A stretch of 64,000 bases of DNA from an uncultured Candidatus Saccharibacteria bacterium (GTDB lineage: Bacteria > Patescibacteriota > Minisyncoccia > Phycocordibacterales > WO2-35-19), in assembly GCA_964630525.1 (NCBI GenBank), contig CAZVUY010000003.1, forward strand, positions 48,699-112,698. The letters are read 5' to 3'. A program made the translations under genes and the position numbers. Positions 5,600 through 51,345 of this stretch are shown one piece after another (the first letter of the stretch is position 1; each line of letters begins with the position of its first letter). The notes beneath the pieces are model-generated. The model did not search any database. It was not told the DNA's origin and saw only the letters and a list, made by a program, of their open reading frames with translations.

Positions 5600-6646
5600 A
5601 TGTCTCAAAAAACTATCCAACTATCATTTTTTATCGCGCTTACTTTGGGACTTTTGGTACTCGCTTTCTTTGTTTTTAAGCCCTATCTCGGGATCATCTT
5701 TATCGCCAGTGTGTTGTCAGTCCTCTTTTACCCCCTTTACCAGAAATTTCTTATCTGGTTCAATGGCCGGCCGGGCCTCTCGGCTCTCGCTACACTTTTG
5801 GTGATTGTGGTCGCCATTGTTTTGCCAGCAATTTTCATATCAGCGAGCGTTTTTTCAGAAGCGATCGGTCTCTATAATTCGATCGCTTTCGGTGGCGGGG
5901 CTCAAAAAGCGATAGATTACATTGACCTGCTTTCCTCTAAGGTTGGTGGGTCGCTTTTCAATAATCCGACTTTTGAAATAGGTATCGAAAATTATTTTCG
6001 AGATATCTTGGGTTGGGTGATCAGTCATTTCGATTCTATTTTCTCAGCAGTATTCAAAGGGATTTTGGGTTTTGTCTTGATGCTCATCTCGATCTACTAT
6101 TTGCTGCGCAATGGTACCAAACTCAAAGAGGCGATCGTGATGTGGAGCCCGCTACCAGACAATTATGACGAAGAGATATTGGTGGCTCTGCGATCTTCTG
6201 TTGATGCGGTGATTCGCGGGAGGCTCCTAGTTTCGGTGGCCCAAGGTGTTTTTTTGAGCATTGGCTTCGTTATTTTCGGAGTGGCCAACCCAGTGTTGTG
6301 GGGTTTTGTGGGTAGTATCGCTTCTCTTATCCCAGCTCTCGGCACTTCGCTCATCACAATTCCGGCAGTGCTCTATCTTTTTGTAAACGGAAGTTATGGT
6401 GCGGGCTTAGGTCTTTTGGTTTGGGGAGCAGTGGCAGTCGGTTTGGTCGACGATACCCTTTCTTTCTTTATTTTGAAAAGAAGTATAAAAATTCACCCGC
6501 TCCTGATCCTCTTCTCTATTTTAGGCGGAGTCCAATTGTTCGGGATCATTGGTTTGATAGCCGGACCGGTCGTTATCAGTGCTTTTCTGGCGCTACTTCG
6601 GGTTTACCCCTTTATCCTTCGCCAGGATTTATCTACCAAAATGTAA
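5600..6646 (+). CDS. AI-2E family transporter (PerM/UPF0118)
   Basis: Roughly 350 aa polytopic membrane protein with the typical AI-2E layout. Confidence 0.7.
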   Translation: MSQKTIQLSFFIALTLGLLVLAFFVFKPYLGIIFIASVLSVLFYPLYQKFLIWFNGRPGLSALATLLVIVVAIVLPAIFISASVFSEAIGLYNSIAFGGGAQKAIDYIDLLSSKVGGSLFNNPTFEIGIENYFRDILGWVISHFDSIFSAVFKGILGFVLMLISIYYLLRNGTKLKEAIVMWSPLPDNYDEEILVALRSSVDAVIRGRLLVSVAQGVFLSIGFVIFGVANPVLWGFVGSIASLIPALGTSLITIPAVLYLFVNGSYGAGLGLLVWGAVAVGLVDDTLSFFILKRSIKIHPLLILFSILGGVQLFGIIGLIAGPVVISAFLALLRVYPFILRQDLSTKM

Positions 6647-6649
6647 ACA

Positions 6650-7939
6650 ATGGCAAGTTCGAGGTTACCAAGTGTACTCATGTTTGGGTGGGAGTTCCCA
6701 CCTTTTAATAGTGGTGGACTTGGAGTGGCCTGTGAGGGCTTGACCAAAGCGTTGTCGGCAAGCGGGGTCGACTTGACTTTTGTGTTGCCTTTTAAAATCC
6801 CGGTGGCGGCTTCCTGGTGCCGTTTTGTTTTTGCCAATGATTCGACCACTTTTAAAAATGAGGCCCAGATCCGGACACTTTTTGCTGGTTATCAGAGTCA
6901 TTCTGATACTGTTTATACTAAAAAATATGGGTTACCAAAAAATATTTCTGGCAGTTTGGTTGAGCGGGTACGCACTTATGCTCACAGTGCACCAGCGGTG
7001 GCGGCACGAGTCGAACATTCGGTGATCCATGCCCATGATTGGCTTACTTACCCGGCCGGGATAGCTGCCAAAGAAGTTTCTGGTAAGCCGCTGGTCGCTC
7101 ATGTGCATGCGACCGAGTTTGATCGTAGTGGAGGGGACAGTGTCAACCGAGAAATTTTTGAAGTGGAGATGGAAGGTTTTCATAAAGCCGATCGGGTGGT
7201 CACTGTTTCTGGTCTTACCAGAAAAAAAGTAATTGAAAAGTACGGAGTTGCACCAGAAAAGGTGCAAGTGGTCTACAATGGAATTGAATTTGGTACTAAC
7301 CACTCTGCGATCGAGCACAATCTGGAAAAGCTTAAGAGAGAAGGTAATTCAATTGTTTTGTTTGTAGGCCGGATCACTCTCCAAAAAGGTCCGGAGTTTT
7401 TTGTTGAGATGGCCAAGCGGGTGATGAGTTATGAACCAAACACATTTTTCGTAGTTTCGGGAAGTGGAGATATGGAAGGAGAAATGATTGGAAGGGTGGC
7501 AGCGGCCGGACTTTCTCACAAATTTATATTCTGTGGTTTCTTGCGAGGAGATGAGCTTGCACGAGTTTACAAAGCAGCCGATATTTTCGTGATGCCCTCG
7601 GTTTCTGAGCCGTTCGGGTTAGTGCCACTAGAGGCAATGATTTCAGAAGTACCGGTCCTAATCTCTAAAGAATCCGGAGTGAGTGAAATATTATCGACAG
7701 CGCTCAAATCTCATTTTTGGGACATAGACGATATGGCCGACAAAGTGGTGAGTGTTTTGCGTCATCAGAAACTAAAAAAACATTTGAGTATAAATGGTCG
7801 CGAAGAAGTGAAGACTATCCACTGGAAAAAAGCTGCAGACACCTTGATCTCAGTGTATAATTCTCTAGACAATGCCTTCGGTATGCTTTTACTTCCAAGT
7901 TCACCAGCCGTTGCGGGTGCGAAAGTACCGCATTTTTGA
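6650..7939 (+). CDS. Glycosyltransferase, GT4/GT5 glycogen-synthase-like
   Basis: N-terminal FGWEFPPFNSGGLGVACEGLTKAL and C-terminal SEPFGLVPLEAM motifs. Confidence 0.7.
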   Translation: MASSRLPSVLMFGWEFPPFNSGGLGVACEGLTKALSASGVDLTFVLPFKIPVAASWCRFVFANDSTTFKNEAQIRTLFAGYQSHSDTVYTKKYGLPKNISGSLVERVRTYAHSAPAVAARVEHSVIHAHDWLTYPAGIAAKEVSGKPLVAHVHATEFDRSGGDSVNREIFEVEMEGFHKADRVVTVSGLTRKKVIEKYGVAPEKVQVVYNGIEFGTNHSAIEHNLEKLKREGNSIVLFVGRITLQKGPEFFVEMAKRVMSYEPNTFFVVSGSGDMEGEMIGRVAAAGLSHKFIFCGFLRGDELARVYKAADIFVMPSVSEPFGLVPLEAMISEVPVLISKESGVSEILSTALKSHFWDIDDMADKVVSVLRHQKLKKHLSINGREEVKTIHWKKAADTLISVYNSLDNAFGMLLLPSSPAVAGAKVPHF

Positions 7940-9131
7940 TGTTGGTAACAACCGTTCTTATTTTAGCGACGAGAGCGGCACCAGCCTGGACAACAGAGCA
8001 ATCGTCGAGAAAGTGGCTACCAAATGTTATCTGCCAGCCAACGCTACTATTCTCGAAAATATAAAAAGCAATCCTGATTTCAAAGTGAGCTACTCGATCT
8101 CTGGGGTGGCACTCGAACAGTTTGAAAAGTTTAAGCCAGAAGTTATCGATTCGTTCAAAGCGCTGATTGACACCGGCAATGTCGAGCTGCTTTCTGAGAC
8201 TTATCACCACTCACTCTCTTCTATTTTTGCTGAGGATGAGTTTGTCAATCAGGTCAAAATGCACCGCAAGAAAGTGAGGGACATGTTTGGCGTCACTCCA
8301 ACTATTTTCCGCAACACGGAGCTTATTTATTCCAACGAGATTGCTCGTTTGGCAGAGGCGATGGGTTACAAAGGTATTTTGGCTGAAGGAGCCGACCATG
8401 TTTTGGGTTGGCGTAGCCCCACCTTTCTTTATCGACCGGTTGGTACGGAAAAAATAAAATTACTACTCAAGCATTATCGACTTTCCGATGATATCGCTTT
8501 TCGTTTTAGTCAGCGGAGTTGGGAAGGTTGGCCACTCACTGCGCCCAAGTTTGCTGATTGGGTAGCTTCGCACAATGGCAATGGGCAGACAGTCAATCTT
8601 TTCATGGATTATGAGACTTTCGGTGAACATCAGTGGGAGGATACCGGTATTTTCGAATTTTTGCGTCATTTGCCAGGAGAGATTTTGCGCAATCCGGACA
8701 ATAATTTTCTCACTCCTTCTGAAGTGGTTGATCGCTACGAGGCGGCAGCCGAACTCGATGTGCCGTACCATGTCTCTTGGGCCGATACTGAGCGCGACCT
8801 CTCGGCTTGGATGTCAAATGATTTACAAAATGAAGCACTGCGAACTGTCTATGATTTGGGTAAAGAAATAGTACACGTGAATGATCCTGAACTTTTGGAA
8901 GATTGGCGGCGATTGCAGACTTCTGATCACTTCTACTATATGTGCACCAAATATTTCAATGACGGCGATGTTCACAAATACTTTTCTCCATACGAGTCGC
9001 CCTACGAAGCCTTTATTGCTTATATGAATGTGATGCAAGATATGCGTCTGCGCCTTGAAGAGGCCAAGAAAAATGAATCACACGGGATTAGCATTCATCG
9101 AGTGAAGCCACTTCGTTTTAGTGAAATGTAA
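7872..9131 (+). CDS. Glycoside hydrolase family 57 (alpha-glucan acting)
   Basis: N-terminal FYFQVHQP matches the GH57 FHQHQP signature. About 420 aa. Confidence 0.75.
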   Translation: MPSVCFYFQVHQPLRVRKYRIFDVGNNRSYFSDESGTSLDNRAIVEKVATKCYLPANATILENIKSNPDFKVSYSISGVALEQFEKFKPEVIDSFKALIDTGNVELLSETYHHSLSSIFAEDEFVNQVKMHRKKVRDMFGVTPTIFRNTELIYSNEIARLAEAMGYKGILAEGADHVLGWRSPTFLYRPVGTEKIKLLLKHYRLSDDIAFRFSQRSWEGWPLTAPKFADWVASHNGNGQTVNLFMDYETFGEHQWEDTGIFEFLRHLPGEILRNPDNNFLTPSEVVDRYEAAAELDVPYHVSWADTERDLSAWMSNDLQNEALRTVYDLGKEIVHVNDPELLEDWRRLQTSDHFYYMCTKYFNDGDVHKYFSPYESPYEAFIAYMNVMQDMRLRLEEAKKNESHGISIHRVKPLRFSEM

Positions 9132-44666: not shown

Positions 44667-45239
44667 ATGAAGAAAATCTGCATCATTATCGGTCACCCGG
44701 ACACCATAAGCTTCAACCACCAATTGGCCGAATCTTACGCAGAGGGGGCGAGAGAAAAAGGTCATGAAGTGAGGGTTACCAACTTGGGCGATCTATCTTT
44801 TGATCCAGTGCTGCACCACGGTTATCGCGAAATTCAGGAGTTGGAGCCAGACCTGAAAAAGATCCAGGAGGATATAAAATGGTGTGAGCACCTAGTGATC
44901 ATCTACCCATCTTGGTGGTCGACGATGCCGGCTATCCTGAAAGGTATGTTTGATCGTATTTGGTTGCCGGGTTTTGCTTTTCATTTCCACCCAAACGGTT
45001 TGTGGTGGGACGGTTTGCTCAAAGGTCGCACCGCGAGAGTCTTTGTGACTTCCGATGCTCCACCCATCTTCACTCGCATTATCTTTGGTGATACGACCAA
45101 TGAAATCCGCAAAGGTATTTTGTGGTTTGCTGGCCTCTCTGTCTCAGTCAAAAAGATTGGCCCTCTCAAAAGAATTTCAGAAGAGAAGAAGCAAAAGTGG
45201 CTCAACAAGCTCAAAAAGTGGGGGAGCAAGGTTTACTGA
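44667..45239 (+). CDS. Flavodoxin-like NAD(P)H dehydrogenase (quinone) family protein
   Basis: KKICIIIGHP N-terminus and the HLVIIYPSWW pattern. Confidence 0.65.
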   Translation: MKKICIIIGHPDTISFNHQLAESYAEGAREKGHEVRVTNLGDLSFDPVLHHGYREIQELEPDLKKIQEDIKWCEHLVIIYPSWWSTMPAILKGMFDRIWLPGFAFHFHPNGLWWDGLLKGRTARVFVTSDAPPIFTRIIFGDTTNEIRKGILWFAGLSVSVKKIGPLKRISEEKKQKWLNKLKKWGSKVY

Positions 45240-46108: not shown

Positions 46109-46363
46109 ATGAAAAAGCATCGCATCGCTCCCGAAGTTAAGGAGCAAATCATTAATCGCATCAAGAACGATGGTTTAACTGTCGTTCAGGCTGCCAAAGA
46201 TCACGGAGTGGCCGAGGGCACCATCTATACTTGGATCGCCAGGAAAACGGACGAGAATGTATCTCTATCAGACTTTCTCAAGATTAAAAGAGAAAATGAT
46301 CAGCTCAAGATGCTTCTGGGCGAGATCACCCTCAAGCTGTCCGAAACCCAAAAAAAGAAGTGA
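46109..46363 (+). CDS. IS3 transposase OrfA (HTH)
   Basis: HTH LTVVQAAKDHGVAEGTIYTW and a leucine-zipper-like tail. Confidence 0.8.
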   Translation: MKKHRIAPEVKEQIINRIKNDGLTVVQAAKDHGVAEGTIYTWIARKTDENVSLSDFLKIKRENDQLKMLLGEITLKLSETQKKK

Positions 46364-47184
46364 GGGAAACCAGCCTGACCACCAAAGCTCTTCGGGCCCG
46401 AGAGTTAGGTGTGTCACTGCGTAGTCTGTACTACAGACCAAAGAAACCGGACAAAGATTGGCTTCTGAAGTGTCAGATTGAATCTGTTCTGCGAGAACAT
46501 CCATCATATGGATCGAGGAGAATATCAATCCATCTGAATATGAATCGCAAACCGGTGAAGCGAGTGATGAACCTTTTTGGCATCAAAGCATACAGACGTA
46601 GAGGCAGAAAATGGAAGAAAACCAAGAATATCAGGGTGATATATCCAAACCTGCTCCTGACAGAATATCCAGCATATCCTAACCATATCTGGACAGCAGA
46701 TTTCACTCACTTAAATTTTCAAGGAAAAATCATATACATCGCCACCGTGATGGATTTGTTCACCAGGCGGATTGTCGGCGTAGCGGTGTATACGAATCAC
46801 GCTGTTCAGTTGGTATTAGCTGCTCTAATGAACGCAATATTGACCAACCAAAGGCCGGAGATATTCCACTCCGACAACGGCAGTGAATACAACGCGGATG
46901 TATTCATCGAGGCTCTAACAAATATCGGAACAATGATTTCCAGATCTGCTCCAGGTTGTCCGTGGGAGAATGGCTACCAAGAGAGCTTCCACTCACAGTT
47001 TAAGGTGGACTTTGGTGATCCTGCTAGATTCAAAAGTCTCGGTGAGTTGGTCTACGAAATATATCAGACGATCTACCGCTACAATCACATGAGGATTCAT
47101 TCAGCTCTCAAGATGCCGCCACAGAAATTTGCAGATTTAGCGGCAGCAGAATACAATTTAGAATACAAGATTCGTGTGCAATGA
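46360..47184 (+). CDS. IS3 transposase OrfB (DDE integrase core)
   Basis: DDE triad at WTADFTH, HSDNGSEY and ENGYQESFH. Probably expressed as an OrfAB fusion by a -1 frameshift. Confidence 0.8.
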   Translation: MRETSLTTKALRARELGVSLRSLYYRPKKPDKDWLLKCQIESVLREHPSYGSRRISIHLNMNRKPVKRVMNLFGIKAYRRRGRKWKKTKNIRVIYPNLLLTEYPAYPNHIWTADFTHLNFQGKIIYIATVMDLFTRRIVGVAVYTNHAVQLVLAALMNAILTNQRPEIFHSDNGSEYNADVFIEALTNIGTMISRSAPGCPWENGYQESFHSQFKVDFGDPARFKSLGELVYEIYQTIYRYNHMRIHSALKMPPQKFADLAAAEYNLEYKIRVQ

Positions 47185-47488
47185 ATGGGGTCCAGTACAG
47201 GTCGACATAAAAGCAAAGAGCCCCAAGTCTTTCAACTTGGGACCCCGCAGTTGATGTCATTTGGCACTACTGCCAAACGTGGACTCATTCTATACCAAGT
47301 TAGATGAAAAATCAATGATATTCACAGCTTTACATTTAAATCCCAAAATATGGCTTCAGAACTAAGCATCGGCATAGTCTAGATACTACACGTAACTATT
47401 TTGGCCAACAGAAAGGTATTCCATTTGAATTTGTTGTAAAACTTCCTCCTCGCCGCAAGCTATTTGGTAATCCGTAATCTGGCATTCT

Positions 47489-47643: not shown

Positions 47644-47901
47644 CTAATCGTACTCGAAGTGTTCCTTGTTCTGCGCTACCGACTCAGGAGCCGGCGGCTT
47701 TGCAAGGGAAGCAATTTGAGCGTCGAAGAGTTCACGATAAACTTCCGTGACGAACTCGACGGACTCCTCGTAAGTGATACCGATGGCTTTGGCCTCGTTG
47801 GCCAGCTCTCGGTTGAGACCTCGCCGTAGCTTGATCCCATTCTCACGAAGTTGCTTCTTCATCAGCAATAGAGCAATTTGCCCTTTGCGTTCTTCTGTCA
47901 T
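47644..47901 (-). CDS. Hypothetical protein (85 aa)
   Basis: ATG at 47901 has an AGGAGGTG RBS; the longer track ORF starts at 47952. Confidence 0.4.
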   Translation of the reverse strand: MTEERKGQIALLLMKKQLRENGIKLRRGLNRELANEAKAIGITYEESVEFVTEVYRELFDAQIASLAKPPAPESVAQNKEHFEYD

Positions 47902-48014
47902 GTACATCACCTCCTTTCCGAAGTGATCTAGGTATAGTATAGCATAATCCATCCGCTATTGCAAGTTTTATTAAAACATGGTTGAATTATGCGCGGAAAA
48001 GGAGATTTTACACA

Positions 48015-48809: not shown

Positions 48810-49122
48810 TAGCCCACTCTCGCGTCAGGCCAAGTGTCTGGCGCGAGCTTTCTTTTTATCCAAAATTTAATTACACTCTATAAATCATGGCCAATATTTC
48901 TGTTGGCACGGGAGGGACGCAATCGAGCATTTTCATAACCCAATGGCTTCTAAGAAAATTCCCTTCTTTTTCGAGATAAAATTACCGCCTCCACTCCGTA
49001 GGGGAATCGACTACGGCATTACCAAGGACAACCGCTGGGTCTTTACCGTAGATAAAAAAGAATAGTCCGACTTCTCGGGTAAGGTTTACTAACAAACAAA
49101 TATAAGATAAATTACCTTTGGT

Positions 49123-49557
49123 ATGAAAAATTGTGTATATTGCACGTTACCGGAAATCAAGGAAAGACAGATTATCGAGAATGATCTGGCTTGGGCTTTC
49201 TTAACCAACATCCCAATCACCCCCGGCCACACACTCGTTATACCGAAGAGGTGTGTCGCAAAGTATGAGGACCTGACCACAGAAGAAAAGTCGGCGATTG
49301 AAGAACTTCGAGTGAAGATCGTCGATGTCCTTACAAAGCTCTACGGAGCTGAAGGGTTCAATATCGCTTGGAACGTGAACAAGATCGCTGGCCAGTCGGT
49401 CCCTCATTTTCACTTGCACATTGTGCCTCGGAAGGAAGGCGACGAAGGTATCTACGAATACGAGCCGAGGAAGTTTTTATATCGGCCGGGAAGTCGCGAG
49501 ACAACTCCGGAAGATGAACTCAAAGCCACTTCGGAGGAAATACGAAATGCACTGTAG
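49123..49557 (+). CDS. HIT-family hydrolase
   Basis: Histidine triad HFHLHIVPR. Confidence 0.8.
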   Translation: MKNCVYCTLPEIKERQIIENDLAWAFLTNIPITPGHTLVIPKRCVAKYEDLTTEEKSAIEELRVKIVDVLTKLYGAEGFNIAWNVNKIAGQSVPHFHLHIVPRKEGDEGIYEYEPRKFLYRPGSRETTPEDELKATSEEIRNAL

Positions 49558-49599
49558 TACAAAGGGCCGCGGAGAATATCCACGGCCCTGTTCTTTTGT

Positions 49600-50171
49600 T
49601 CATAGAGCAAGTTCCTTTTTGACAACTTCCACGATCTTCGGCCAATCCCGTTCGTGGAAAGCCATATACTCGCGAATGGCATGTTGCACTTGGCGCCAGC
49701 CGCCATCTCCGTTACTTCTCGGATAGACTTTGCCGGTCTTCATGTCGAACACCTCGCTTCCCATAAAAGTAGCAACACGAGCGGTATGCAAAGCCGGTTT
49801 TTCCATGTCTGGATACTTGAGCGGTTTGTGGGCTCGCCATAGTTCACAACCCAGATTGTCATTTTGGTCTTCTCCTCGACAGAGAAAGAACGATTCGATA
49901 CCGAGGTCATGCAGCTCTTTGGCAAAAGCGAGCTGTTTGTGCGAGATACCGGGGATCTTGCCGGGCAGCCAGCAATTTTCGAAGATAATGGCCCGAAGTT
50001 TCCCATCAACCAAACACTGCTTCAGCTTGGTTAGTTCTTCTTCTGGATTGGTGTCGAAGATGTCGTTGTGCAGGCAAAAGGTATGCAGCCCTTGGCCAGT
50101 TTGGGCGGTTTCCGTAAGTTGCCCAGTTCCGGACGAATAGCTGGTAGTCGCCAGTATTTTGAGTTTTTTCA
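49600..50171 (-). CDS. Hypothetical protein (190 aa)
   Basis: ATG at 50171 has a GGAAGGAG RBS. Moderately GC-rich. Confidence 0.4.
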
Positions 50172-50262
50172 TCAGAACTCCTTCCGGGAGTAAAGCTACC
50201 TCCAAAACGCCACTATGTAAATAGCTTTCTTTTTATCTAAATTTTGGTTAAGCTCAATACCA

Positions 50263-51345
50263 ATGGCCAATATTTCTGTTGGGATAGTCGGTTTGCCGAA
50301 TGTGGGGAAGTCCACCCTTTTTAATGCGCTTACCAAAAAAAGCGTGCCGGCGGAGAATTATCCTTTTTGCACCATTGATCCGAGTGTTGGGATTGTGCCG
50401 GTGCCAGACGATCGTCTCACCAAGCTGGCCGAGCTTAGTCACTCGGCCAAAACGATTCCAGCGGTAGTGGAATTTACTGACATTGCCGGGTTGGTAAAAG
50501 GCGCTTCGGAGGGTGAAGGGTTGGGCAACCAATTTCTCTCTCATATCAGAGAGGTAGATGCGATCGCTCAGGTGGTCCGTATCTTTGAGGACAAAGATAT
50601 CATTCATGTTCATAATAAAGTGGATCCGGTATTTGATATCGGTACTATCAACCTCGAGCTTATCTTGGCCGACTTGCAGACGGTGAGCAAAAGACTTGGG
50701 ACTTTGGAGAAAGATGTCAAAAGAGGCGATAAGGAAGCAGTGATTTTACAAGGGGCGTTGCAAAAAATAAAAGAAGCACTGGAGAGCGAAAAACTTGCTT
50801 CCACTGTTTTTGCTCCGACGCACGAAGTGGTCGGAGGGTCGGCTGTAAACGTCGACCATGATAAAGAGTATCCGCTAGTCAAACAAATGCAACTTCTCAC
50901 CATGAAGCCGATCTTTTATGTTCTGAATACTTCGGAGGCAAGTGAAAATTTGGAAATTGAAAATTTACTCCGACGTGAAGTCGGAGAGCCGACCGAAGCG
51001 TCGGCTTTGAAAATTAACAACTATGTTGTTGTTGATGCGGTGTTTGAAAAAGGTTTTGATGATTTGATCAAAAAAGCTTACGAAGTGCTTGATCTCATAA
51101 CTTTTTTCACTACCGGAGAGGACGAAACCAGGGGTTGGACTACCAAAAAAAATTCGACAGCACCGGAAGCGGGTACGGCGATCCATACAGATTTTAAAGA
51201 CAAATTCATTCGAGCCGAAGTGGTGTATTGTGATGATCTGCTAAGTGCTGGCTCTTATACTACTGCTCGCGAGAAAGGTCTGGTCCGCACCGAAGGCAAG
51301 GAGTACATTGTCAAAGATGGCGATGTGATTGAGTTTAAGATCTAA
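50263..51345 (+). CDS. ychF: Ribosome-binding ATPase YchF
   Basis: GIVGLPNVGKSTLFNALT. Obg-like with a TGS domain. Confidence 0.9.
   Translation: MANISVGIVGLPNVGKSTLFNALTKKSVPAENYPFCTIDPSVGIVPVPDDRLTKLAELSHSAKTIPAVVEFTDIAGLVKGASEGEGLGNQFLSHIREVDAIAQVVRIFEDKDIIHVHNKVDPVFDIGTINLELILADLQTVSKRLGTLEKDVKRGDKEAVILQGALQKIKEALESEKLASTVFAPTHEVVGGSAVNVDHDKEYPLVKQMQLLTMKPIFYVLNTSEASENLEIENLLRREVGEPTEASALKINNYVVVDAVFEKGFDDLIKKAYEVLDLITFFTTGEDETRGWTTKKNSTAPEAGTAIHTDFKDKFIRAEVVYCDDLLSAGSYTTAREKGLVRTEGKEYIVKDGDVIEFKI

Follow-up and report, generated by a model that had tools for sequence, protein, structure and literature searches.

A displaced ychF start upstream of ychF in a Patescibacteria contig as a probable relic of integration by serine-recombinase elements

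The repeated start of ychF

The window analysed here, a stretch of 64,000 nucleotides from contig CAZVUY010000003.1 (positions 48,699 to 112,698, forward strand; assembly GCA_964630525.1) of an uncultured Candidatus Saccharibacteria bacterium of the Patescibacteria, carries an intact ychF gene for 360 amino acids (50263-51345, plus strand; Pfam MMR_HSR1 and YchF-GTPase_C), whose promoter region and first seven codons occur a second time at the far side of a 1.4-kb insert. This repeat, and the sequence joined to it, which we read as the severed tail of a large serine recombinase (LSR) gene, are the subject of the present work. Copy 1 (48846-48906, plus strand) comprises the apparently displaced ychF promoter region (48846-48886) and ychF codons 1-7 (48887-48906), and makes up the left half of a junction of the type expected at the left attachment site of an integrated element (attL); copy 2 (50223-50282, plus strand) comprises the presumably working promoter region (50223-50262) and codons 1-7 of ychF itself, and lies on the side of the right attachment site (attR). 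The first-pass annotation of the window had reported the repeat, which proved to be a real direct repeat, although copy 2 begins at 50223 and the start given there, 50216, is 7 nt early. The 30-codon dead-end open reading frame (ORF) opened by copy 1 (48887-48979), described in the same annotation, was found as stated, and so was the location between the copies of a HIT gene and a convergent gene for a 190-amino-acid (190-aa) protein (Pfam HIT, E=2.8e-23; no family for the 190-aa protein).

The two copies agree in 15 of 15 nucleotides at their 5' end (AGCTTTCTTTTTATC), differ by nine mismatches and one indel over the following 26 nt, and are again identical over 20 of 20 nucleotides (ATGGCCAATATTTCTGTTGG), which are ychF codons 1-7; past this 20-mer the similarity breaks off sharply. 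The 20-mer has two sites only in the window with up to three mismatches permitted, and matches in 0 of 100 shuffles; the 23-nt motif at the 5' end of the repeat likewise has two sites only. In ychF the break corresponds to the Gly codon of the N-terminal ..S-I/V-G motif, which is codon 7 in the window; ychF of the closest relative begins ATGGCTAAGATTTCGATTGG (MAKISIG). Since the two copies differ in sequence, being identical only over 15 + 20 nt, duplication by the assembler is unlikely. The proviso of the first-pass annotation that copy 1 might be an assembly artefact, that is, a chimeric join or a collapsed repeat, has nothing specific in its favour apart from the metagenomic source of the assembly, and it has to be regarded as very unlikely, with a negligible chance of being right: over a stretch of 21 kb that spans both junctions the sequence agrees to 100% with an independent Logan assembly of SRR13355620, the same YchF protein with the same neighbours is found on three contigs, and homologous junctions are present in independent samples (contig L182).

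A decayed ychF after copy 1 was rejected as a candidate, as local and global alignments of 48907-49100 with ychF score no better than shuffles; significant similarity to ychF was not found in the 192 nt after copy 1. A structured RNA or an attC-like hairpin at the junction was also rejected, with no Rfam match between 47900 and 50400 and folding z values of +0.67 and -0.47 after copy 1, and a Xer/dif-like or palindromic site within the repeat was dropped on inspection, which revealed weak AT-rich dyads only. At its 5' end copy 1 overlaps the putative intrinsic terminator (48819-48857, plus strand) of the preceding 275-aa gene, a 12-pair stem followed by CTTTCTTTTT, the T-tract of which is the first 12 nt of copy 1.

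The sequence joined to copy 1 is read as the tail of a large serine recombinase

Copy 1 runs directly into a 159-nt segment, X1 (48907-49065, plus strand), which lacks a start codon and reads HGRDAIEHFHNPMASKKIPFFFEIKLPPPLRRGIDYGITKDNRWVFTVDKKE up to its stop codon in the +2 frame relative to the ychF ATG. It was detected by tblastx and by alignment to contigs L011 and L039, and homologues of X follow a truncated ychF start in both of them as well as in L034, L002, L090, L181, L182 and L186; copy 1 together with X1 is 84% identical to positions 219-457 of L182. The consensus of X in the +2 frame is H-G-x-N-T-T-R-H...I-P-F-E-F-x-I-K-L-P-P-P-L-R-R-G-I-D-Y-G. An exhaustive profile search with X in public data retrieved 63 representative proteins (distinct at ≤50% identity), mostly short ORFs, several of them being the C-termini of longer proteins. 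The longer matches contain a Zn-ribbon and a coiled coil, followed by '..LQVYGYIPI..N(V/I).L.S..R^HG.NTTRH..IPFEF.IKLPPPLRRG(V/I)DYGF' (the caret marks the junction), and one profile match, P0033, is recognized by Pfam as Zn_ribbon_recom. As this domain is characteristic of LSRs, X is read as an LSR tail; in accordance with it, recombinase C-termini match positions 48883-49026 of the window in tblastn. About 37 of the 63 representatives read '(Y/H)V(T/S)..(R/W)^HG' (like 'YVTIHR^HG'), as results from translation of ATGTCACTATCCATCGG in the LSR frame, and they therefore represent scars of the attL type; the uncut tail is found in seven representative proteins.

The copies of X have diverged in a manner typical of coding sequence. 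Between X1 and the corresponding segment of L182 (276-434), differences at first, second and third codon positions number 1, 2 and 16 (p = 7e-6), with 15 synonymous and 4 non-synonymous codons; between X of L039 and X of L181, the flanks past which are unrelated, they number 9, 6 and 19. Comparison of the scar copies thus shows what appears to be strong purifying selection on a recombinase tail that has no start codon. The third-position bias implies that the tails diverged as translated sequence, most simply inside live recombinase genes, which in turn points either to independent integrations by related elements or to some function kept by the clipped tail; judging from the substitution pattern, the latter may be the case. 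Two other readings of X were discarded. Read from the opposite strand or in frame with ychF, it is not conserved, and hand translation revealed stops two codons past the junction in three copies. Its origin from a larger non-recombinase protein was considered when a word-indexed search yielded three short ORFs only, and was settled by the exhaustive profile search.

Integrated, uncut and scarred states in related genomes

A ychF start ending in ..ATCGG or ..TTGG and continued by X was found in ten instances on nine contigs (twice in the window, and in L002, L011, L034, L039, L090, L181, L182 and L186), and on the attR side the rest of ychF resumes at the same position. The occurrence of one and the same junction in at least eight other contigs marks it as a signature of site-specific integration. 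The first-pass annotation had placed the insertion just upstream of ychF; the break is, in fact, inside the gene, at the codon-7 Gly, where ychF is joined to the LSR tail.

An integrated form of the element is preserved in contig L084, in which an intact LSR of 539 amino acids (6419-8038; Resolvase, Recombinase and Zn_ribbon_recom) overlaps with its last codons the ychF ATG at 8001, and a Prim-Pol/D5_N replication gene lies upstream of the LSR gene. The LSR frame ends there with ..NINVFSFNR^DCGIT and a stop codon, and the ychF frame reads ATG TCT TCT CTT TCA ATC GG^G (MSSLSIG). The uncut form occurs in contig L185, where the 3' end of the LSR gene is continuous across the junction (atcaATGTCCTCTCTAGCTATCGA directly followed by CATGGTGTGAAC), a ychF-like start (MSSLAI) being embedded in another frame just 5' of the position at which the scars break; the LSR frame reads ..NINVLSSYR^HGVNTTRH and goes on to GIDYGFMSSVKPR and a stop codon. 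The L185 gene is 5'-truncated on a contig of only 1.3 kb and may belong to a free element or to one integrated elsewhere. The attachment site is thus inside the LSR ORF, which is split upon integration, as seen from the comparison of L084 (cut) with L185 (uncut) and from the tail left at the attL scars. C-terminal LSR remnants lie directly upstream of ychF in L002, L032 and L181, and L002 and L181 retain both scars, the ychF start with X on one side and the LSR remnant at ychF on the other, flanking islands of 1.7 kb and 6.8 kb, respectively. The 6.8-kb island of L181 (2321-9394) contains ThiF and Prok-JAB genes, a gene for a 497-aa protein of unknown function and fragments of type I restriction-modification genes, and looks like defence cargo.

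Direct repeats of the gene start were also sought in 82 Patescibacteria loci, with five other conserved genes as a control. Upstream repeats overlapping the start codon are enriched at ychF (L002, L017, L034, L102 and L112, and a diverged one recognized by eye in L013), and there are almost none at the five other genes in the same loci; several of the ychF repeats end at the same ..S-I-G codon (..ATCGG). The repeats of relatives vary from 11 to 61 nt in length, the position of the junction being constant. A few loci are of a different appearance: in L017 (9095-9992) a 46-nt repeat of the ychF start is continued not by X but by a KilA-N-like gene (assigned by eye); in L102 (6276-7942) the ychF promoter and ATG are reused, again without X, by a gene for a 548-aa FG-GAP-repeat-like protein (assigned by eye); L112 (7859-7995) and L013 (9877-9997) have an insert of about 100 nt without X but with a shared hairpin, C[CT]CAG[AT]AGTA...ACTACGGGG, the folding z of the inserts being -4.2 in L013 and -1.9 in L112; and in L042 (11777-11808) the ychF promoter is repeated downstream of ychF. 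In phage contigs of IMG/VR, a degenerate ychF P-loop pattern returned only full-length ychF genes at provirus edges, and no close relative of the L084 LSR was found there; the tail profile detected one further attL scar, L186. Several provirus predictions of IMG/VR in high-GC, Actinobacteria-like contigs (L162-L169) stop exactly at the ATG of a full-length ychF, which is probably due to trimming at gene boundaries but hints at prophages adjoining ychF there too.

These data bear on the reading given in the first-pass annotation, a plain local duplication of the ychF 5' end into which unrelated foreign DNA was inserted illegitimately, and on its variant, a transposon that produced a long target-site duplication. 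It would account for direct repeats around a 1.4-kb insert, and an IS3-family insertion sequence (46109-47184, plus strand; orfA 46109-46363, orfB 46360-47184; Pfam HTH_Tnp_1 and rve) is located 1.7 kb away. IS3 elements, however, generate duplications of 3-4 bp. Moreover, the mismatches between the copies are uneven (0 of 35 positions at the ends of the repeat vs. 9 of 26 in its middle), the junction is fixed in relatives in spite of the variable repeat length, and the sequence joined to it is a recombinase tail in many genomes, so that this explanation has only a slim chance of being correct.

An older scar and the variable island upstream of ychF

The repeat is situated at the right end of a 5-kb variable island, bordered on the left by a Flavodoxin_2/FMN_red gene (44667-45239, plus strand; Pfam on the Logan locus), the usual left neighbour of ychF in relatives. 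The island contains a VIT1 gene, the IS3 element (59% identical to a homologue in L113), two genes of unknown function, copy 1, the HIT gene, the 190-aa gene and copy 2. The synteny comparison proposed in the first-pass annotation bore out an insertion: in many relatives Flavodoxin_2 is 0.1-0.7 kb away from ychF, against 5 kb in the window, and it is directly upstream of ychF in L007, L012, L023, L035, L040, L041, L048 and others. Its proposal of partial duplication with insertion proved correct in one part: the two copies, each with the ychF promoter and seven codons, enclose foreign or variable DNA that is missing in relatives. Most of about 125 Patescibacteria ychF loci are free of scars, and many of them with Flavodoxin_2 directly upstream represent the unoccupied chromosomal target site (attB) in relatives, the best YchF identity among which is 69-71%. 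The nearest YchF proteins come from metagenome-assembled genomes of Parcubacteria/Paceibacteria and are 67-71% identical or less; genome and metagenome scans returned no YchF above 69% identity, and the closest relative (71%) was reached via homologues of the 190-aa protein.

The island also preserves a second, older junction of the attL type, absent from the first-pass annotation. A fragment resembling the ychF start (47350-47372, plus strand; ATGGCTTCAGAACTAAGCATCGG, reading MASELSIG) ends in ..ATCGG at the position of the other junctions and is followed by a second severed recombinase tail, X2 (47373-47477, plus strand; HSLDTTRNYFGQQKGIPFEFVVKLPPRRKLFGNP up to the stop codon, without a start codon), recognized by tblastn with X peptides and by alignments. 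The presence of this older attL (47350-47477) means that the event happened at least twice and that the locus is an array. The older scar has the IS3 element as its immediate left neighbour. The interval separating it from the newer junction contains ORFs for a 102-aa protein (47644-47952, minus strand) and a 264-275-aa protein (47982/48015-48809, plus strand), neither of which has a Pfam or NCBIfam match; the promoter region between them is 80% identical to L182, where it is located 3' of the X1-like tail.

Gene content upstream of ychF is highly variable in the clade, with 117 Pfam families among 132 ORFs, the commonest being Flavodoxin_2 (14 of 132). No recurrent integrase family was revealed in the Pfam scan of these ORFs just upstream of ychF, and a tyrosine integrase adjoining ychF was rejected on these grounds. 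The block downstream of ychF is conserved in relatives (DUF5671, LeuRS, sigma factor, DUF8128 and YceG). ychF of the clade mostly possesses an extended -10 box (TGnTAnnnT) 6-9 nt 5' of the ATG and no Shine-Dalgarno sequence, and this arrangement suggests leaderless ychF transcripts.

The HIT/190-aa pair and the motif at its borders

The cargo between copy 1 and copy 2 is a gene pair (49099-50233) composed of the HIT gene (49123-49557, plus strand), a putative terminator hairpin at about 49564-49588 and the convergent 190-aa gene (49600-50172, minus strand). The HIT protein matches the Pfam family over residues 11-105 and has the HxHxHxx motif (PHFHLHIVPR), but it scores under every NCBIfam equivalog cut-off. 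For the 190-aa protein there was no Pfam or NCBIfam match, only eight homologues among 5.8 billion clustered proteins, and no PDB fold match to its AF2 model (pLDDT 71; TM-score ≤ 0.35). The 190-aa genes always adjoin genes of nucleotide or ADP-ribose metabolism (HIT, NADAR, HD_3, Nudix, CTP_transf_like, dCMP deaminase). At the nucleotide level the pair is 79% identical to L174 and 73.5% to L170-172, ychF itself being 69% identical; at the protein level the values are, in the same order, 91% and 89% for HIT and 78% and 71% for the 190-aa protein, with 71% for YchF. The pair sits beside different genes in L170-172, L173, L174, L176 and L177, and these genomic comparisons show it as a mobile, portable module. 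In the merged L174/L175 locus an ArsR-like HTH_20 gene, located between the 190-aa gene and ychF, has a 25-nt palindrome (ATCATTCTCCAAA[A/G]ATAGAGAATGA) on either side, which could serve as an operator or represent the termini of a miniature element.

The 5' part of the repeat turned out to be shared with such modules. The motif GCTTTCTTTTTATYYAAAWTTT occurs in the window at 48846-48868 and 50223-50245, each time with an ATG about 15-20 nt later, and also in L173, L174, L176, L177, L180 and L182; its role may be that of a movable promoter/terminator unit or of a site of recombination. In another explanation, homologous recombination at this portable repeat (GCTTTCTTTTTATYYAAAWTTT up to the ATG) would have brought in the HIT/190-aa pair as a separate event, the likeness of copies 1 and 2 5' of the ATG being that of a promoter family and not a result of the recombinase event. 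The motif is indeed found on both sides of the HIT/190-aa module in L174 and L177, and it flanks a NADAR-HD_3-190-aa module in L173 (19 nt, one mismatch), with no ychF or X nearby; the closest relative of the module, L176 (190-aa protein 95% identical), departs from the window right past AGCTTTCTTTTTA, inside copy 2; and the module is better conserved between genomes than ychF. Separate arrival leaves unexplained, however, the identical 20-nt ychF coding segment of copy 1 and the X tail, and the motif is short and AT-rich and in copy 1 is partly the T-tract of a terminator. We consider this explanation doubtful, though far from negligible.

Proposed mechanism and points against it

Taken together, the results make it probable that the window contains a relic attL/attR pair in a two-unit array, left by serine-recombinase elements that target ychF. 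The position of the junction, the nature of X as an LSR tail and the existence of intact integrated and uncut forms in relatives are, as far as comparison of sequences goes, demonstrated. The genome of the window is taken to be one of the Paceibacteria/Parcubacteria within the Candidate Phyla Radiation (CPR). According to the proposed mechanism, integrative elements of this clade would carry an LSR and use the first ~20 nt of ychF as the chromosomal attachment site, the element's own site being inside the 3' end of the LSR gene, where the LSR codons just 5' of the crossover would also encode, in another frame, an ATG and the initial 6-8 ychF codons. Two junctions would arise on integration: attL, at which the final ~35-55 codons of the LSR gene (X) come to follow the former ychF promoter and initial codons, and attR, at which the LSR body is set against the rest of ychF and provides it with a replacement start; an empty site would read as the arm of copy 1, the 20-mer and GATAGTCGG. 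Under this scheme copy 1 with X1 (48846-49065) would be attL and copy 2 (50223-50282) the present ychF start on the attR side, and the window would be ordered as the start-like fragment with X2, the 102-aa and the 275-aa genes; copy 1 with X1, the HIT and the 190-aa genes; and copy 2 with ychF. As no recombinase body is present, these are relics and not a complete element. We infer that the event in the window was catalysed by such an LSR, whose body was presumably lost later unless the unit never carried one; copy 1 would now transcribe into X and the HIT gene, and copy 2 would drive ychF. The first-pass annotation had held that relatives with the same arrangement and diverged copies would speak for an old, fixed feature rather than a recent insertion, and this applies in part: the phenomenon is old and recurrent in the clade, the single events being independent.

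A broader proposition is advanced tentatively, at somewhat less than even confidence: that CPR bacteria host an undescribed class of serine-recombinase elements which split their own recombinase gene on integration, the codons preceding the crossover being dual-coding (LSR C-terminal region / ychF promoter and start), so that the tail is clipped, ychF is re-equipped with a new start and the old promoter is passed to the cargo, and that repeated rounds of integration, or recombinase-less derivatives, build cassette-like arrays.

Several observations weigh against integration by elements that carried their own LSR. A tblastn search with the L084 LSR found no LSR body in the 64-kb window, only the two 3' tail fragments, and most of the relatives bearing scars have no LSR body beside ychF. 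The upstream arm of copy 2 is short and diverged (about 61% identity by eye to its L084 equivalent over 33 nt), too much so for its origin from an LSR gene to be demonstrated. Both copies of the window and that of L182 have a sharp 5' edge in common, GCTTTCTTTTTAT, which does not fit independent decay of different LSR genes, and this motif borders HIT/190-aa modules in L173, L174, L176 and L177 with no ychF or X adjoining; the common edge and motif would fit a family of trans-mobilised, recombinase-less cassettes with a fixed 61-nt half-site, or a self-recombining portable promoter unit. Because serine recombinases need no long homology, the 20 identical nucleotides and the 78% identical arm need further explanation, such as dual coding or a previous cassette. 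Finally, the ychF-start duplications in L017, L102, L112 and L013 are not continued by X, and attL of the L084 element falls outside the 8-kb stretch covered.

Part of this evidence is accommodated by a non-autonomous cassette (X, cargo and the 61-nt ychF promoter/start) that never carried a recombinase and was mobilised in trans by an LSR encoded elsewhere, e.g., by the L084 element. The two ends of such a cassette would jointly make up a complete attachment site, minicircles would be inserted at ychF, and arrays would grow at their ychF-proximal end, with a logic resembling that of integrons. Apart from the common 5' edge and motif, this explanation is favoured by the three successive R-like/ychF-start units in the window (47350, 48887 and 50263), each followed by X or ychF, by the small inserts (0.9-1.7 kb) without a recombinase in the window, L034, L090 and L039, and by the lack of a recurrent integrase family among the 132 upstream ORFs. 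On the other hand, purifying selection on X at the protein level fits descent from live recombinases better than an untranslated half-site, the decaying LSR remnants on the attR side in L002 and L181 indicate that loss by deletion does occur, and neither a circular form nor a trans-acting LSR was observed for this genome. Mobilisation in trans is accordingly a possible but, in our estimate, unlikely explanation.

Relation to known systems

Prophages and integrative elements with LSRs that insert in conserved genes are exemplified by phiC31, Bxb1, A118 in comK, SPbeta and the TnpX type. The elements considered here are similar to them in the enzyme architecture (Resolvase, Recombinase, Zn-ribbon and coiled coil in L084), in a single precise crossover within a conserved gene and in the Prim-Pol/D5_N replication genes. 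They share with them junctions at the same position, an observed attachment site of the element (attP, in L185) and attB in relatives; a recombinase encoded by the element itself is found in L084 but not in the window. Unlike in the known LSR elements, the attachment site of the ychF type is within the coding sequence of the recombinase, so that integration removes its last ~45-55 residues. Further differences are that the stretch ahead of the crossover at the same time supplies the beginning of the target gene, that the ychF 5' end is the target, that the hosts are CPR bacteria, and that only scars are left in the window.

Genomic islands at tRNA and tmRNA genes bring with them a substitute for the end of the gene, and the opposite border retains a partial direct repeat. 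The ychF islands resemble them in an intact target gene on one side and an incomplete copy on the opposite side, in tandem relic arrays and in variable cargo (defence genes in L181, metabolism genes in the window), but in the ychF islands the 5' end of a protein-coding gene with promoter and start codon is replaced, and not the 3' end of an RNA gene, and the recombinase is of the serine type. With integron arrays they have in common one- or two-gene cargo units stacked at a fixed site and a resident promoter reading into the newest unit; unlike in integrons, an IntI tyrosine recombinase is absent, scans of the junction region with Rfam and by folding revealed no attC hairpins, and the cargo is present in both orientations.

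The closest parallel in the fate of the recombinase gene is offered by the 'suicidal' integrases of the SSV type from archaeal viruses and plasmids, whose gene contains the attachment site and is broken in two when the element integrates, a property considered exclusive to archaea in a 2021 review (PMC8371274). In both cases the attachment site is in the integrase gene, the split gene leaves a fragment at each end of the element, and the fragments persist as scars. The SSV type, however, comprises tyrosine recombinases of archaea with tRNA targets, whereas the ychF elements have a serine recombinase, occur in Patescibacteria and target ychF; furthermore, the ychF element loses only a short C-terminal tail, the catalytic body being intact at attR (L084). 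The ychF elements, therefore, work like a partitioned integrase but are not members of the SSV type. A search in a library of papers found neither a serine-recombinase nor a Patescibacteria counterpart of the self-splitting integrase.

A connection between mobile elements and ychF has been described in pneumococci, where, according to PMC8637289 (citing Chen et al., 2019), a prophage attachment site adjoins ychF and a defective prophage controls ychF expression. As in the window, a mobile element is there immediately upstream of ychF, the pneumococcal integrase gene adjoining ychF and ychF transcription being affected (same account in PMC8637289). The pneumococcal site is, by contrast, intergenic (between a DUF951 gene and ychF), belongs to Firmicutes, is served by a different integrase and has no relation in mechanism to the ychF elements, and that account (PMC8637289) describes no duplication of the ychF start.

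Meaning for the mobile elements of Patescibacteria

What was an odd local duplication thereby becomes a signature that recurs: a conserved tail of ~50 codons behind a ychF start. It points to sites of integration and to small genomic islands in the Patescibacteria, a group about whose mobile elements little is known. The 63 representatives can be used for mapping such islands and their cargo, including the ThiF/JAB and restriction-modification island of L181. The segment that serves both as the C-terminus of the recombinase and as the ychF start and promoter is an unusual case of overlapping information. Clipping of the LSR tail is a possible built-in directionality switch, and the elements offer a natural system for asking how removal of the C-terminal tail affects integration vs. 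excision; for genome engineering, serine integrases whose sites in a conserved gene are defined are, besides, of practical interest. Neither the enzyme class nor the site-specific entry into a conserved gene is out of the ordinary among serine integrases; what is unusual is the attachment site within the LSR ORF, with the preceding codons doubling as the start of the target gene. The system looks like a bacterial serine-recombinase counterpart of the archaeal split integrases. A self-cut integrase gene was formerly thought to be confined to archaea and to tyrosine recombinases, and a bacterial serine version would show that the strategy evolved twice.

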